A DNA stretch of 63,903 nt, the filler included, from Collodictyon triciliatum (lineage: Eukaryota), in NCBI GenBank assembly GCA_043381765.1. It is 5 parts of 5 records of this genome, joined end to end, with 100 filler letters (N's around TTAATTAATTAA, not from the genome) between each part and the next. Parts side by side here need not be neighbours in the genome. Positions count along the whole stretch, not along the records: positions 23,199 to 29,417 come from JBHJMP010000535.1; 4 more parts are not named here. One strand, given 5' to 3'. Within the stretch, counting starts at the first letter, position 1; each line of letters opens with the position of its first letter. Of this stretch, positions 19,301 through 60,525 are shown one piece after another. The position numbers and the translations under genes were made by a program. The notes beneath the pieces are model-generated. The model was not told the origin of the DNA, searched no databases, and saw nothing but the letters and a program-made list of their open reading frames with translations.

Positions 19301-22300
19301 CCATAATCGTTTTCGATTTCCAAACACATGTAAATAATCGCTCATATGTCAGCTGTAAAAATTACCCCACTTTCAATCGCCCTTTTCCTTTTCGTAATAT
19401 TTTTTGAAATAAAATTAATCAAAAAGACACTTCATCTGCCCCGTCCCGAACCCCTGGAATAAGTCCATCGGTGTCTTCATATGCCCTGGCTGCAACAACT
19501 CGATTGTCTCCTCCTGAAACCCCTCATGTGGAAGTGATTAAAGCGCTCGACCATGCCATAGGAAACATGGCTGAAAAGAAGCTTGACCAAGCACAAATGC
19601 TGCTGCAGGATTTAGTTGGTTCCCATGGTAACCACGTTGCTGGATTGATTATACTGAGACTTCTCTATCAACACCATCCGTCTGTTATTCCTCTTCCAAG
19701 AGCAAAAGATATTTGTGAGGATATTGTGAATCGCGCCCAAGCATGCTCTCCTGAAAAGAAACAAGAGTCGAAGGAAATATTGGATAATTTCTTTGCAGAG
19801 AGTAAAGGCTGCAAAACAAACAAGGACTCTCTCACAGTAGTGATTTATGGACAGTATCTGGAATGCATAGTGAATGACCCACAAGGAAGCTTTGAGTGCT
19901 ATTTACTCGCCGCAAAAAGTGGATCTGCTTATGGGCAGAACGAAGTCGGACTATGTTACACAATCGGATACGGTGTTCATCAGAGCTTTGTGGAAGCGTT
20001 CATGTGGTTTCAGAAGGCTGGAGAGCAAGGAGATGCAGACGCGTTGAACAATATAGGAAACTGCTACTACAATGGAAAGGGTGTAGCCACAAGTTATCCA
20101 GATTCTGTAGAGTATTATTCAAAAGCAGCAGAGCTCGGACATGGGACAGCTATCAACAATCTTGGATTCTGCGCTGAAACTGGGTTTGGGATGGAAAAAG
20201 ATGTCAAAGCAGCATTCAAGTACTATCTCAAATCTGCTGATTATGGCATAGGAAATGCACAGAATGATGTTGGAAATTGCTTTATGAAAGGAACAGGGAC
20301 AGAAAAAAATCCGCAACAGGCCGTGGCGTGGTACAAAAAAGCTGCTGAACAAAAACACCCGGACGGGTCGTTCAACTTTGCCAACTGTTTGGAAAATGGT
20401 ACTGGAATACAAAAATCCATCACAGATGCAGTCAAATATTACAAGGTTTCCTGTGCGGCATCCTATGCCCCTGCCTTATTCCGATTGGCCAAACTCTATC
20501 TCACAGAAGAAAGCCTGGGTATGAAGGCACACGACGCTATAAAATTACTAAAGAAATCTGCATCTCAAGGATATGGAGAGGCGGTGTATGAACTAGGACG
20601 GTGCTTTGAAGATGGCATTGGAGTTACAAAGAGCGCGCCGGATGCACTGAAGTGGATTAAACGTGCCTCTGAACTTGAAGTTCCTGCCGCTCAATTCCAT
20701 TTGGGCGGGATGCATGAATCTGGGACGGGAGGTCTTGTACAGAACTATGCGGAGGCATACAAGCTTTTCCGTCGGTCAGCAGAACACGGATACGGAGATG
20801 CCCAAAGCAAGGTCGGAAGCTACTACCGAGATGGGCGTGTTGTGCAGCAGAATCTTCGAGAAGCCATCAAATGGTACGAGGCCGGAGCTAAGCAAGGAAA
20901 TTCGAATGCGCAATACAACCTTGGATGCTGCTACGAAAAGGGCCAAGGCGTCCCGCAGTCTTACGAAAAGGCGTTTGAGTACTATCGACTTTCTGCCGAT
21001 CAAGGCAACTACCGCGGAGAAAACAATTTAGGATACTGCTATAAAAATGGACGTGGGGCCAGAGCTGATGCTGCTGAAGCTGTGCGATGGTACACAAAAT
21101 CAGCTGAGAAGGGATACGCTGTGGCACAAAACAATCTTGGGAGTTGCTTCTACTTTGGTCACGGAGTTTCACGGGATTTCGATAAGGCCATAGAATGGTT
21201 TACGAAAGCAGCAGAGAAAGGAAACCACGGAGCTCAATATAACCTGGGAGTGAGCTATGCGAAAGGACGGGGAGTTCCCTGTGACCTTGGCAAGGCACTC
21301 GAATGGTTTGCAAGAGCTGCGGAGCAAGGAAACCCGGATGCTCAATACAACTTGGGAATCTGCTATGCTAGTGGGCAGGGCGTAGTAAAGAACTCAACAG
21401 AGGCCTGCAAGTGGTTCACAAAGGCTGCGGAGCAAGGAAATGCAGATGCCCAAAACAACCTTGGAATGTGCTATGAGCGAGGGGATGGCACCTTTCATAG
21501 CACAGACGAGGCCATTAAGTGGTACAGAAAAGCAGCAGAGCAGAATAATATCCAAGCACAGTATAATCTCGCGCTATGCTATACAATCTACATGGAGGAC
21601 GAAGCGCTACACAAGGAGGCGATCTATTGGTTCAAGAAGGCAGCGGCGAGCGGGGAATGCAACGCGCAGTACAATCTGGGAGTGTGTTATGCAAGCGGGC
21701 GTGGAGTTGACAAGAACGTGGGAGAGTCTGTGAATTGGTTTATGAAGGCAGCAGAGCAAAACCACCCAGATGCACAGTTCAACCTCGGATGCTGCTTTGC
21801 GCAAGGGAAAGGTATTGCACGAGACTACAAAGAGGCAGTGCGGTGGTTCAAGAAAGCGGCTGAGTCTGGAGACCCAAACTCCCTCTACAATCTGGGCATT
21901 TGTTACGCAAGCGGCAAAGGCACGGAGCAGAATCTGGCAGAGGCCATGAAGTGCTATCGCGGGGCTGCTCAGCAAGGCCATCTCGAGGCGCAAAGCAGCC
22001 TCGGCTTGTGTCTCTTCAAGGGCCGCGGAACGCCACAGAACTTTGAAGAAGCTGTGCGCTGGTTCAAGAAAGCAGGAGAGAAAGGCAACGCGACTGGTCA
22101 GGCGTACTACGGCTTTTGTCTTGAAAATGGCCATGGAATCCAAGACAATCGGCGCGAGGCAGTTCGCTGGTACCGGATGGCCGCGGCGCAAGGCAATGAG
22201 TTTGCAAAGACGCAGCTTGCAAAGTTGGGCGAGTCTGTTGCACCTCCCAATCACCATCCTCATCACAGCAACAATCACAACCACAGCCAGCAGCAGGCCG

Positions 22301-22350
22301 CTGGGGATGGAGACTTCCGCCCGATTCCTGGGCTTGGGCGGCTCTTCTAA
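16374..22350 (+). CDS. N-terminal helical bundle + pseudokinase + ~21 Sel1-like repeats, multi-exon
   Basis: ATG 16374. In-phase GT-AG splicing links exons encoding LYEGVYKGNKVAIKKL, LKHPCIAHLYGVC, FLHSRNILFHNLNSSFIL, VKLSYFG and DVLRFGIILWE to the exon 19427-22350. That exon encodes 36-aa AQxNLGxCYxxGxGVxxxxxEAxxWxxKAAEQG repeats. Confidence 0.85.
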
Positions 22351-22736
22351 GTCCGGATTCACCCTCTCCTTTTTGGTTTTGTCTTCTTTTCTTTTTTTTT
22401 TTTCCTACGCCTCCTGACTATCTATCATTTCCCTTCTCTACTTTCTTCCCATCCTTGTTTTAATATATTCTAAGTGCATATTCATGAAGTTGTGACAGGA
22501 GGCTGTCCTGATGGGTGTTTGAACTTTGTTTTCTCAGTTTATCTCGTTAATTGGGGCTGAGCCAAGGAGAGATGCAACTGTCACGCTTCGGAATCGTGAT
22601 GAGTGCTGCGCCTGAACCCCTCTTTTCTTTTTATCTTTTATCTCGAGTGTTTTAAAGGAACAGATACACGCGTGCATTGCAAGTAGCAGTCAGTTCTTCT
22701 GTTTCAAACGCTGGCGCAGAAAACCTCCTGAGTTAC

Positions 22737-23098
22737 ATGAAAGTCTAGGAAACCCGAGCAAGGAAGCCGCCTACAAGTCTGTCTGATCGGACAGTATTTT
22801 TGCACGGGGTCGAGCAAGTCGTTTACGACAAGAACAAGGCCCGCAGACTCACAGATGTGCTCGCCTCCTTCTTGAAAGCGAACAAAATTTGCGAAGAGTC
22901 CATCCAACTGCGCTTACCGGACAGCGAAGGTATTTGCCTGATCGCCTTCCGCACTGCAGAAAACGCCCGAAAGCTTGTGGAGCTGAAGCAGGTAAGTTTG
23001 ATCGATATTACGATCAGCTTCAGCAGAAGTAAACCAACAGAGACCTCGGTGATGCTCTACCAACTACCGCTGGACGTGTGGCCGCAACTCCTTCGTGA
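22737..23098 (+). mobile_element. Probable non-LTR retrotransposon (L1/Tx1-like) ORF1 relic, cut by a gap
   Basis: Intronless frame ...CLIAFRTAENARKLVELKQVSLIDITISFSRSKPTETSVMLYQLPLDV resembles the RRM-like N-terminus of L1-clade ORF1p. In-frame TAG at 22746 just after ATG 22737. No RT or endonuclease visible. Confidence 0.45.
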
Positions 23099-23198
23099 NN
23101 NNNNNNNNNNNNNNNNNNNNNNNNNNNNNNNNNNNNNNNNNNTTAATTAATTAANNNNNNNNNNNNNNNNNNNNNNNNNNNNNNNNNNNNNNNNNNNN
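23099..23198. other. Artificial linker N44-TTAATTAATTAA-N44
   Basis: 12-mer with stops in all six frames, centred in exactly 100 nt. Confidence 0.95.
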
Positions 23199-23310
23199 AC
23201 ATACATACATACATACATACATACATACATACATACATACATACATACATACATACATACATACATACATACATACATACATACATACATACATACATGC
23301 ATACATATAC
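23199..23310. repeat. (TACA)n microsatellite
   Basis: Direct reading. Confidence 0.95.
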
Positions 23311-23970
23311 TATCCGATAGGTTGAGCGTGTTCTTCCCGACTCCATCAACCCCCAAGTCAATTACCCCAGACTCCACTGCAGAAGAGCTGGACTCGCCAC
23401 GCTCGTGTGGCTCGGCCACTCTGTGAACATGAAGAACCGCGCCCCCTCGACTTATCACGCAAAACCCAACAAACTCTGCAAATCACAGCGTGGGTAAATG
23501 TGGTGATCACACTGACAGAGGCAGACTTGAGAGGAACAATAAAAACAAACCCATGAATAAGAGTAAGTCTCTGATGCTGAGAAACTATTAACACTGAGAG
23601 ACAGAGAGTACATTCTCCAGAAAATAGTATTATTACAGTGGCGTTCTTTCCTCTCAACCCACCGCATCCCGAAGCCGGAAAAAACTGAAAAAAAAAACAA
23701 GCAAAAAAAAAAACAAGCAAGCAAGCGATTGGAAAGAGCGATCCCGAGAAGGAAGAGACCGGCGCCACAGCCCTGCCCCATGGAACGCCTACTGACCCCA
23801 CGCAAAAAGAGAAGGCCGACGCAGCCGACGCAGAGAGCGAAAAGGTCTCCTTACCACATCCCTTGCTACACAGGTTATGCACCGAGACACACCTACGATC
23901 AAGACGCCAGCTGCCATCGACCCGTGAGTGCAACAAACTAATAATAAGACGGAGCGAGCTCTTTGAAACA

Positions 23971-24048
<78 letters not shown>
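23971..24048. repeat. (AAT)n microsatellite
   Basis: Direct reading. Confidence 0.95.
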
Positions 24049-24050
<2 letters not shown>

Positions 24051-24258
24051 ACATAAAGGTGAATAAAAAAGACCGATCAAGCCCTAGCCAACGACCCACG
24101 GGTAGCAAGATAGGTATGAAAAAAAGCTCAGTATTAGTTGTTCTGATTAATTAATCCGGTTTTTTCTTTTTCTTTTTCTTTTTCTTTTCTTGTCTTTTCT
24201 TTCCTTCATTTCTTTTTTCATTTCTCATTCCTGATGCGAAGCACGGGTACTCTTGCTA

Positions 24259-26435
24259 CACTAAAAAAAAAAAAATTGTTTGTGTGTTTGCCACAATGTG
24301 CACATTTTGAAAGTCTCGGTAGATGCTTAATTTTACATAAATTTCATAAGTTGTTTTATTTTATGAAATCGACTGATTGACTAAAGTGTTATTAAAATTG
24401 AAAACTCGGTAGTTTTCTAAAGGAAAAAGTAAAACAAAGACTTTCAGATGAAGAAAACATAACGTCTTGAGTTTGAGAATCTAAAGTCTGTAAAACCAGA
24501 CTATCGAAATGTGAAAACATTTGTAAAGTCGATTATAAAGAATGCGGATGACTATTACAAAATCAACGATACGGTTTTATTGTGTCATAATTTGGTTACC
24601 GACACTTACCTGTTTGCAAGATGTTACGTATTGAAATCACAACTTCCAACAATCAATGAAATGTTTTTTGTAAGCTTTAAAGAAAGTTGGAGTAGTTTCA
24701 GAAGATAGACCCACAAGATTAAAAAAACCAGAAATGAGTTAAGACATGATGATTTTTTATCTCAATGATTTTCGATTCCTTTTGTCCCGAGAAGAATGCT
24801 TTCCGTTGGTTGGACTGTCTCATGCATTACCGTACTTGGCGAAGCAAATGTTAACAGCTAATTATAATAACATTAAGGGGCATTTTGTAAAGAGATTACT
24901 GCACTTCATAAACCAAACAGTTCCTAAAGACAAGAATATTACGGAAGCAATTCAAAATGCAGAGTTACGAAAGTTAAAAAAAAATTCATCTTTAAGAATC
25001 TCGAAATACCGGAACAATACGAAGAATGGGCTACAACGCATTTGCATCGTATCATTCCCAGCGATATTGTAAAAGGTATAGAATATAACCCAAAGTCAAT
25101 CCGAAGAAGTGCATCCCATGTCTGATTTACATGAGTCGCATTTTTGAGGACATTGGAACCAAACTGTTTTAACCAATCTCTATAAGAACTACCAATATAC
25201 CATGTCATATAACTCTAGATACTGCACGTTTCATAGGTCTATTAGTATCAACTGGGGAAAACATCACTAATGAGGTATAGATCAGGATGGTAAGAGACCC
25301 CAGGGGATAATTTCTTTGAAATGAAGAAGAGGGTCTTCATCAAAGAGACTACAATTTTAAATACATTATACAAACAGACGGCTTGGTGGTGTCATTATTG
25401 TTTGAAAAGAAACGTATTTCAAATTCAAAATTCCAAATATAATGAAAAAAAAACCAAGAACATGTTTATATAGATGAACTTTCAGAAGAGCAGTTATCTT
25501 TATTAGCGACAAAAATAGTTAGAGTGGACGCAGGCAAGTTTAATTCGATTTACATGGTGGATGAGACAGGTAAGAAATTACGTTGCACGGCACACCAAAG
25601 AAGACATGATAGCAAATCTCTTAAAAATTACAAAATACTTTTGCGCAAGAAAAGTACAATTATTCAGGGATATGCATGGCAACAGATTTACAAAGTGCTG
25701 TTTCTTTTGGTGCCCTGACTTTTGAAGAGAATCAGCAGTTTGAGACATCAAGAGCATCTTTAATCCATGTAGAGACAGAACTGAGTAAACAAAATTCATG
25801 CACGGTCGATTATGAAAAAATTCGATAATAAGTATCTATGAAATCAAGATACCAGATAGAGTTATCCAGATTTTATGAACAATTGACTTTTCGAAAGATG
25901 AGGTGAAGACAGTATGTTAATACAAAAAGAAGTGAACAGTTGTTTATGGACTGAATCGAAAAGACATTTGGCAAGGATGTTGTACTGGCGTATGGAGGCT
26001 GGAGCAGAAAATGTCCGATGAAGCATTTTATGCCAACAATCGGAAGGAGATTACGAAAAATACCATCCAAACGTTTTGAAAAATTAGTGTAGGTGAATTT
26101 AAAACCTCCAAGATGTGTTGTATCTGCGAAAAAGAACTAGAATATATGAAACCGAAAGGAAATTCAAAAAAGGTGTATAGATGTCTCATATGTAAAGAAT
26201 GCAATCACTCAGAAAGTAAACAAAGTGTATTCTTGACAAAGACTTTAACAGCGCTAATAACATCCCAAGAAAGGTCTTTTAATCCTTCAAAAAAAGCATA
26301 CACCTTCCTCTAAAAAATAGACTGTCGGGTCTTTCCAGGCAGCCTTCACCACTACACAATCTTTGAAAATAGTGATGAGACCTTGGATACTAGCGCACCG
26401 AGTTTACCAATCGGCAGATGGTATACCCCTTCTAG
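24259..26435 (+). mobile_element. Non-autonomous Fanzor-carrying element (boundaries approximate)
   Basis: Intronless Fanzor remnant with a hairpin-rich left flank and a stem-loop + CTAG right flank; no transposase in the interval. Confidence 0.6.
24420..26310 (+). pseudogene. Fanzor1-like (TnpB/Cas12-related RuvC nuclease) pseudogene
   Basis: Collinear fragments across frameshifts: VKTFVKSIIK..KINDTV..TYLFARCYVL..LPTIN; LPYLAKQM..NNIKGHF; TNIPCHITLDTA; IIQTDGLVVSLLF; RuvC-I IVRVDAG (D 25527); FRKMR*RQY; VVLAYGGWS..MKHFMPTIG; RuvC-II GEFKTSKMCCIC (E 26095); YRCLICKEC; RuvC-III DFNSA.NI (D 26241). Multiple stops and frameshifts. Confidence 0.88.
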
Positions 26436-26511
26436 TAGTAAATACAAATAAAAATAAGATAAAACAGAAAACATAAACAGGCACCCAAGAAACACACAAA
26501 GAGAGTTCAAG

Positions 26512-27207
26512 ATGTCTTCAAAGCTGCCACGCTCAACCAGCGCAAGTCGAGTCCCGACCACCTCCAAGGCTGCTCACTCTTCTCCATCAGCCCGGGAAAA
26601 AGAGCTGCAACGAGACAATCCCACTTCTGCACCAGCGAGAAATCGATCGGCCTCAGCCTCTCGGATGCGTCCGGCTTCAGTCGCAGCCACTTCCAATAAC
26701 AGCAGAATACCGCCAGCAAAGCCAGACTCAGCCAGACAGCTACCTGCAGTACTGGTTGCCAGGAAAACAGGGCAGGATAATGCAAGCGTCGCGCCAGTGT
26801 TGAAAGGACGTCTGGCTCCCTCCAGCAAGATAGGTTCTGGACGTCGAAGCCAGCGAACTCATCTCTTCAGTCAGCTGCCTGACGAAATACTATTGATGGT
26901 ATGTTTGTCGATTGAATTCGTATTATGTATGTATGTATGTATGTATGTATGTATGTATGTATGTATGTATGTATGTATGTATGTATGTATGTATGTATGT
27001 ATGTATGTATGTATGTATGTATGTATGTATGTATGTATGTANNNNNNNNNNNNNNNNNNNNNNNNNNNNNNNNNNNNNNNNNNNNNNNNNNNNNNNNNNN
27101 NNNNNNNNNNNNNNNNNNNNNNNNNNNNNNNNNNNNNNNNNTGTATGTATGTATGTATGTATGTATGTATGTATGTATGTATGTATGTATGTATGTATGT
27201 ATGTATG

Positions 27208-29417: not shown

Positions 29418-29517
29418 NNNNNNNNNNNNNNNNNNNNNNNNNNNNNNNNNNNNNNNNNNNNTTAATTAATTAANNNNNNNNNNNNNNNNNNNNNNNNNNN
29501 NNNNNNNNNNNNNNNNN
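29418..29517. other. Artificial linker N44-TTAATTAATTAA-N44
   Basis: Same structure as 23099-23198. Confidence 0.95.
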
Positions 29518-48589: not shown

Positions 48590-48689
48590 NNNNNNNNNNN
48601 NNNNNNNNNNNNNNNNNNNNNNNNNNNNNNNNNTTAATTAATTAANNNNNNNNNNNNNNNNNNNNNNNNNNNNNNNNNNNNNNNNNNNN
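48590..48689. other. Artificial linker N44-TTAATTAATTAA-N44
   Basis: Same structure as the other linkers. Confidence 0.95.
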
Positions 48690-57551: not shown

Positions 57552-57995
57552 ATGCCACCCAAGCCTGGAGCCGGAAAGAAGCCGTCCAAGTCGCCTGCCA
57601 CATCAGCTGCCAAGGAAGGCACAGCAGCGCCCGAGAAGGTTGCCTCCAAGACCGTCAAGAAGTCGACCACGGACTCGTCGGAAGTCAAGAAGAGACGCGT
57701 GAAGCGCGCAGAGACATACTCGTCCTACATCTACAAAGTGCTGCAGCAAGTCCACCCCAAAACCGGAATCTCGCAGCGCGCAATGGCCATTATGAACTCG
57801 TTCATCAACGACACCTTTGATCGCATTGCCTCCGAAGCCGGCCGTCTCGCCCGCATCAACAAGCGCGGCACTCTGACCTCGCGCGAGGTTCAGACATCTG
57901 TCCGCCTGATTCTGCCCGGAGAACTCGCCAAGCACGCCGTGTCTGAGGGTACCAAAGCTGTCAGCAAGTACAACGGCTCCGGAACACCCGCCTAG
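57552..57995 (+). CDS. H2B: Histone H2B (intronless, long Lys/Ala/Ser/Thr N-tail)
   Basis: [46 protein letters not shown]...[32 protein letters not shown]. Confidence 0.97.
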
Positions 57996-60425: not shown

Positions 60426-60525
60426 NNNNNNNNNNNNNNNNNNNNNNNNNNNNNNNNNNNNNNNNNNNNTTAATTAATTAANNNNNNNNNNNNNNNNNNN
60501 NNNNNNNNNNNNNNNNNNNNNNNNN
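60426..60525. other. Artificial linker N44-TTAATTAATTAA-N44, preceded by (CAAA)n
   Basis: Same structure as the other linkers. Confidence 0.95.

Follow-up and report, generated by a model that had tools for sequence, protein, structure and literature searches.

The 63,903-nucleotide stretch of Collodictyon triciliatum DNA analysed here (assembly GCA_043381765.1; hereafter the window) very probably holds a Fanzor1 gene that is full-length but broken and lies within an old member of a many-copy repeat family, the repeat being likely a non-autonomous transposon. Fanzor1 proteins are RNA-guided DNA cutters carried by jumping genes. The intronless pseudogene lies on the plus strand, as do all other parts of the gene and element described below, at 24448-26320, from an ATG at 24448 to a TAG at 26318-26320. 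The original prediction had called this region a dead copy of a Fanzor1 family, which is borne out by sequence, profile and fold searches as well as by many sister copies. Of the extent it gave (24420 to 26310), the pseudogene itself stands, with the start corrected to the ATG and with similarity continuing at the other end to 26356. Judged from its sequence, the window copy is unable to encode a working nuclease, and its family is probably uncharacterised, as are most Fanzor families.

Frameshift-aware alignment of window positions 24448-26356 to residues 1-642 of P0002, an intact public protein of 648 aa, yielded 374 identical residues out of 636 (59%) and a score of 1657, as opposed to 34 and 40 for two shuffles of the same DNA. 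When P0002 was searched against the window using tblastn, collinear pieces were recovered from 24448 to 26264, five of them linked (E 7e-150) and a further two at 1e-18, and the two methods together confirm collinearity with a single homologue. A second P0002-like locus was sought in the window by tblastn as well, with nothing better than E 3.2. The region 25775-26086, read through with its stops as X, retrieved one longer relative, again P0002, at 70% identity over 98% of the query.

The reading is interrupted by ten internal stops (24460, 24740, 25170, 25291, 25440, 25443, 25826, 25829, 25904, and 25952) and nine frameshifts (near 24673, 24986, 25090, 25251, 25339, 25650, 26081, 26239, and 26265). 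Its longest clean run is 81 codons, and the catalytic D, E, and D sit in three different reading frames. The two TGA stops and several single-nucleotide frameshifts originally described are present, as part of this fuller set. The suggestion that the TGA at 25904 arose from TGG agrees with the alignment of this codon to a Trp of P0002 and with the contigs of other copies, which read Trp (8 in sequencing run X1 and 12 in run X2, both described below). The TGA at 25952, proposed to derive from CGA, aligns to an Arg of the sister fragment P0350, which fits CGA and fits AGA too.

Upon alignment to P0002, the three RuvC acidic residues, the four zinc-finger cysteines, and the QTDG (or TDG) and AYGxWS motifs all fall where the original prediction had placed them. 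D364, E555, and D604 of P0002 align to window positions 25527, 26095, and 26241. The QTDG motif occupies 25371-25382 (TDG at 25374-25382) and the AYGxWS motif 25988-26005 (Y-G-x-W at 25991-26002); TDG is given as a hallmark of the WED domain in Fanzor1 (PMC10711439). The RuvC-I Asp motif at 25527-25535 reads DAG, where relatives have DPG, itself a Fanzor trait (PMC10711439). D364, P365, and G366 are invariant in 28/28 rows, P0002 included, of A1, our alignment and profile of 28 relatives, and the DAG of the window is one base away from DPG; the site does not occur among the 40 best-supported variant rows described below. The RuvC-II Glu (26095-26097) lies six residues ahead of the first zinc Cys (seven codons from E26095 to C26116), a placement described as a Fanzor trait (PMC10711439, PMC13565253). 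The C4 zinc finger, CxxC...CxxC, spans 26116-26202, with Cys codons at 26116, 26125, 26191, and 26200, and is followed by the RuvC-III Asp at 26241-26243. The Arg codon preceding this Asp (the RD motif) is broken by a frameshift, so that the Arg is lost in the window copy; it is kept in P0002 and in P0345, another fragment. Except for this broken Arg, the long motif published as defining Fanzor, D-X(125,275)-[TS]-[TS]-X-X-C4-X(5,50)-RD (PMC3627910), is matched, with TSKMC at 26104-26118 about 193 residues after D25527. The zinc-finger region produced a weak match to Pfam PF07282 (E 0.006, below the cut-off), and Pfam searches with eight window fragments retrieved nothing above the cut-off.

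Assignment of the P0002 family to Fanzor1 is supported by sequence and model comparison, in that it matches only solved Fanzor1 structures. The 636 aligned residues also suit the 600-700-residue length, with an enlarged REC/WED lobe, that typifies Fanzor1. Searched against PDB sequences, P0002 matched the Fanzor1 proteins GtFz1 (Guillardia theta, 9cer), PpFz1 (Parasitella parasitica, 9cf0), and SpuFz1 (Spizellomyces punctatus, 8gkh) with E values from 2e-28 to 4e-23, the only other matches being two myoglobins at E >0.3. The A1 profile retrieved these three as well (E 3e-59 to 1e-44), and no Fanzor2 or TnpB chain at E <=1 (four sequences matched, the fourth being a ribosomal protein at 0.71). 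The fold comparison was made on the intact relative P0002 and not on the window's own reading; the AlphaFold model of P0002 has a mean pLDDT of 75. In the fold search with this model, seven Fanzor1 chains rank first (E 2e-26 to 6e-23), SpuFz1 among them at E 2e-26 and TM 0.69-0.75, as compared with E 9e-7 or worse for Cas12f, Fanzor2, and TnpB (mimivirus Fanzor2, 9b0l: E 2e-5, TM 0.18-0.24; TnpB, 8h1j: TM 0.19-0.31). Pfam and NCBIfam searches with P0002 gave no family match, its PF26935 (DUF8286) label being taken from precomputed tables, and the family call therefore rests on the PDB sequence, profile, and fold matches. PF26935 is present on nearly all full-length relatives (P0002-P0105 and Atlas clusters) and on almost no C-terminal fragments, and for this reason DUF8286 is likely the N-terminal part of Fanzor1.

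Searches retrieved 104 proteins of similar length, with the next best after P0002 at no more than 46% identity, and 3147 cluster representatives scoring E <=0.001. The nearest relatives among public proteins are P0002, P0107, and the fragments P0158, P0199, P0304, P0305, P0357, and P0358. Two NCBI fragments are closer still to the window reading, P0350 at 81% identity and P0345 at 78%, the latter itself frameshifted. Alignment with relatives places an insert of about 33 codons after RuvC-I, at 25658-25756 (approximate edges). Between the two anchors that flank it, the window copy, P0002, P0107, and P0199 have 66-67 residues, as against 34 in 251 of the 360 spanning sequences; P0304, P0357, and P0358 carry a 30-residue version, and P0248, a row unrelated to these, has a long insert of another kind between the same anchors. 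All relatives of the P0002 group that span the site share the insert of the window copy. In P0002 it comprises residues 409-441 (33 residues), and residues 415-439 of the model have pLDDT <50 and lie between two long helices. The FRI insertion of PpFz1, of roughly 100 residues (PMC11423790), is located elsewhere, aligning between P0002 residues 474 and 484.

A quick tree was built from 75 of 370 rows, picked by redundancy, with the insert columns removed. It includes three rows that are under half filled and has neither an outgroup nor named Fanzor1, Fanzor2, or TnpB references, and no direction of transfer can be read from it. The window copy groups in this tree with P0002, P0158, and P0199 (SH-aLRT 98), and the group nests in a 19-row clade (SH-aLRT 99) that includes the viral loci L001, L002, and L025. 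The window copy and a few metagenomic proteins form a small clade, marked by the 30-33-residue insert, inside a larger giant-virus Fanzor1 clade. Scans of viral contigs and metagenomes did not find DNA surrounding the insert clade; 22 metagenome loci considered as such were GC-rich chance matches, 0/22 encoding a relative. The annotated proteins of a choanoflagellate include P0337, a C-terminal fragment of the wider Fanzor1 group, which is therefore not confined to viruses. The papers covered by our literature search include none on this insert or on a Fanzor with Helitron1-type ends. The window copy alone means little, as it is dead and thousands of Fanzors are already catalogued (3655 in PMC10530073). 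P0002 and P0107, by comparison, are intact natural members that define a small insert-bearing Fanzor1 subclade and can be assayed as they are.

Copies of the element were sought among the contigs of three public runs, X1 and X2, which belong to one study that is perhaps the assembly's own source, and X3. The share of the window copy's exact words was 10% in X1, 9% in X2, and next to none in X3. At 80% likeness, 388 contigs in X1, 381 in X2, and 1 in X3 matched 24060-26900, most of them 80-99% alike; those of X1 divide into 37 at 99% or more, 93 at 95-99%, 133 at 90-95%, and 125 under 90%. One listed X1 contig covers the adjacent host gene with 3 differences in 374 bases (99%), which indicates that the organism itself or a close relative is present in X1. 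Contig cover is unbroken from 24250 to the bin ending at 26434 and falls in the next bin to 1.4 and 0.13, placing the right end at about 26435-26439. The element thus has a minimum extent of 24250-26437, and its left end may reach further left. Joints in the contigs reveal other copies with internal deletions of 42-1203 bases. The Fanzor1 gene was carried by a mobile element, as seen in the hundreds of diverged contigs, the sharp right edge, and the internal deletions.

Other copies are free of the stops at 25170, 25291, and 25904 and have indels that coincide with, or lie close to, the frameshifts of 25251, 25339, 26081, and 26239. With about 380 contigs per run covering 24250-26437 and several of the lesions missing from them, the window copy is, on this sequence evidence, one decayed member of a many-copy family. 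We compared it with the other copies at the best-supported 40 of 543 variant rows, a selection that favours sites private to the window copy, omitting 7 rows that were off-frame or on breaks. Of the 33 in-frame single-letter rows left, 9 are silent and 24 change a residue, where about 20% silent is expected at random; among the 24, the other copies have the P0002 residue at 18 and the window has it at 2. Given a silent share near random and the agreement of other copies with P0002, the window copy is derived and its changes look unselected. A 451-base contig spanning 25909-26356 shows 59 differences, and its depth exceeds that of the host-gene contig tenfold (depth here is not copy number), a hint of a more uniform subfamily. 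No intact copy was seen among the contig pieces listed, none of which spans the whole gene.

The left edge of cover is less sharply drawn. Contigs skip a T-rich repeat at 24154-24218 and are broken by a poly-A run, and an X2 joint contig has at least 27 bases to the left of 24259, suggesting that the element starts further left. The region 24060-24154 is also repeated, with a summed depth of 45-49 in X1 and X2 and loose ends that continue differently, and belongs either to the Fanzor element, as its left arm, or to another repeat, as its end. The sequence TCTTGCTAC, found near both 24102 and 24251, was set aside, as it has 12 matches in the window with 11.5 expected.

Several features of the neighbouring DNA were recorded. 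An unbroken 980-codon ORF with 19 Sel1 repeat matches lies at 19408-22350. The region 22700-24048, which adjoins the left of the element, contains an RRM-like ORF fragment (22749-23096), a gap in the assembly, basic sequence with breaks, and about 80 bases of (TAA)n. The RRM fragment matches the RRM type in the Atlas at 0.85, which is a lead only, and has no Pfam match; we presume that the region may be a decayed LINE, given its ORF1-like start and TAA tail. On the other side, a host gene (26512-26898) starts about 75 bases past the right end of the element, its first exon being followed by GT and a (TATG)n tract. This gene has no Pfam match, and the LPDEILL stretch at the end of its first exon is one that we take to be F-box-like. 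Further away, at 57552-57995, there is a histone H2B gene that lacks introns and encodes a long N-terminal tail, the exact sequence of which gene was not found in the protein collection. Islands of 12 bases are found between paired 44-base N runs at 23143-23154 (reading TTAATTAATTAA), 29462-29473, 48634-48645, and 60470-60481, and are likely a scaffolding spacer and not biology.

The wider relatives of the gene are mostly viral. We found 479 IMG/VR stretches encoding relatives, the best 47% identical to P0002, and the Atlas clusters of relatives are 92-100% viral. Comparison was made with the best 80 of the 479 loci (L001-L080), 3 of which have an incomplete 3' side. All 77 whose 3' side is complete finish in an inverted repeat of Mariner type, located 202-265 bases past the last catalytic Asp, and the matching left repeat was found within the viral DNA covered in 59/77, after L016, with only 3 upstream bases, was dropped from an initial 60. 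A relative of the DDE_3 transposase of L003 is encoded in 22/80. Many of these viral elements are 2.4-kb Fanzor-only forms and others are 3.3-5 kb with a transposase. A conserved region of 120-165 bases lies 3' of the Fanzor gene in L001-L080 and runs into the inverted repeat, making up a candidate omegaRNA set. The window ends, compared with the 80 viral loci by blastn, gave low-complexity matches only.

With most of the larger group viral, the stretch could be read as the leftover of an integrated giant virus and not as a host transposon copy, but we regard this as very unlikely. It is flanked by a Sel1-repeat gene, a possible retroelement relic, and a host gene; the window ORFs that were scanned included none recognisable as viral; and the viral-contig scans aimed at the insert clade found nothing. 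The sharp right end and many diverged copies of the repeat also argue against it. We give still less credence to the idea that the gene is intact and looks broken through faulty sequencing or assembly. The draft assembly does contain gaps, with 13 N runs in the window, yet such errors would have to account for 19 breaks and for numerous missense changes that depart from the family residue, next to a 980-codon ORF that is unbroken.

Within the preferred reading, of a decayed gene in a many-copy repeat, the type of carrier is less certain. The repeat's right end (26405-26435) consists of an imperfect hairpin at 26405-26423, 8 bases, and CTAG at 26432-26435, followed by T. No inverted ends better than 5 mismatches in 14 were found in the window copy, nor was an asymmetric repeat of 8-10 bases. 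With left ends taken from 23940-24329, no target duplication starting at the mapped right end was found at 6-8 bases with 0 mismatches or at 9-10 with at most 1; the duplication-like matches that do occur start no earlier than 26442 and set A-rich DNA against a (TAA)n tract or poly-A, and were rejected. Tentatively, the carrier may be an unclassified element lacking inverted ends and making target duplications, for which MCi-2 and MCi-5 of Mucor provide a precedent (PMC3627910); the lack of inverted ends in the window copy fits this, and the lack of a duplication at its mapped right end does not. It is possible, though we would not favour it, that a non-autonomous Helitron of the canonical Helitron1 type captured a Fanzor1 gene and spread by rolling circle. 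The edge of contig cover is no more than a few bases from the CTAG, the T after it conforms to the 3' CTRR before T of the Helitron1 definition in PMC3627910, where Fanzors on Helitrons are also described, the hairpin stands 8 bases upstream, and the absence of both inverted ends and a target duplication is as expected. Nevertheless, the hairpin is no more stable than shuffles (z 0.16 and -1.3) and could just as well be the last omegaRNA stem, and the TC at 24251 is preceded by C instead of A, with the left end not fixed. In favour of a Helitron, the loop of this hairpin reads as a GNRA tetraloop in the few other copies that cover the end (3 contigs in X1, 1 in X2).

A Tc1/mariner (IS630-type) element with decayed ends, as in the giant-virus relatives, or a CACTA/EnSpm element, is improbable. 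The window end lies 192 bases after the last catalytic Asp, near the 202-265 bases of the viral ends, but three versions of the viral repeat compared with 23901-26600 gave at best 5 mismatches in 19 and 7 in 21. The poor inverted pairs also weigh against it, and no transposase remnant was found in the window by tblastn (best E 4.5, with the L003 transposase). Mariner is thus largely refuted for the window copy. For CACTA, there is CACTA at 24259 and TAGTA at 26433, with an X2 joint breaking just before 24259 and an X2 contig ending near 26437; the bases that the X2 joint contig carries left of 24259 speak against a start at that point. We consider doubtful, but worth stating, a scenario in which the insert subclade left giant-virus Mariner elements, was captured by a CTAG-ending Helitron, and multiplied, with a younger subfamily that may be intact. 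If true, the carrier would have changed from a cut-and-paste to a rolling-circle element, and the Helitron's end hairpin would also serve as the final stem of the guide-RNA scaffold. A many-copy host family with ends different from those of its viral Mariner relatives offers a usable case for studying how the Fanzor scaffold and target motif adapt upon a change of carrier.

In characterised Fanzor1 systems, the omegaRNA comes from the right end of the element and the guide from the flank (PMC10432273, PMC10711439, PMC13565253). By analogy, and by position alone, 26320-26435 is likely an omegaRNA remnant; 115 bases separate the TAG at 26318 from the right end. One putative stem, at 26345-26379, is placed as is the first conserved stem of the viral loci. 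Predicted folding of the region was no better than that of shuffles (z -0.1 to -1.3, and 0.28). A covariance model of 35 viral 3' ends had no match at 26320-26440 among its 18 matches up to E 10, and Rfam gave no omegaRNA match and a single chance match. On the strength of its family, the ancestral nuclease would have performed RNA-guided double-strand DNA cleavage, and the ancestral element would have made both the nuclease and an omegaRNA from its right end, the last ~15 bases of which would be read from flanking DNA and serve as the guide. The enzyme might then cut the empty insertion site and so help the element to be copied back. According to PMC13565253, cutting of vacant sites that favours restoration is demonstrated for bacterial TnpB, and cleavage alone for Fanzors. 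Movement would have needed a transposase supplied from elsewhere, in trans, and after insertion the window copy likely decayed without selection.

Compared with known systems, the window family resembles many-copy Fanzor-only elements with internal deletions, such as CRe-1, CRe-2, and CRe-3 of Chlamydomonas reinhardtii and CMe-1A of Cyanidioschyzon merolae (PMC3627910). The CRe elements carry Fanzor1 on a non-autonomous Helitron2 and have introns, asymmetric inverted repeats, and TTTT targets, unlike the window copy, which is intronless and ends in CTAG followed by T. CMe-1A is described in the same source as an old family of about 150 copies at 80% identity, of unknown class and with no inverted ends. 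The PGv-1-type Tc1/mariner elements of giant viruses, a type described by Bao and Jurka (PMC3627910) and represented here by L001, L002, L003, and L025, fall in the same larger clade as the window copy (SH-aLRT 99) and are similarly intronless, with the gene near the right end. Their proteins, however, are 44-47% identical to P0002 and are missing the insert, and the elements have inverted ends finishing in TA and in some cases a DDE transposase, neither of which the window copy has. SpuFz1, PpFz1, and GtFz1 share with it a length of 600-700 residues, TDG, the D-E-D triad, and the Glu six residues before C4, and the P0002 model matches their folds at TM 0.62-0.75 for SpuFz1 and GtFz1 and 0.58-0.65 for PpFz1, although identity is only ~20% and the window copy is dead. 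The nearest intact counterparts remain P0002 and P0107, both of which retain DPG, E, RD, and C4.
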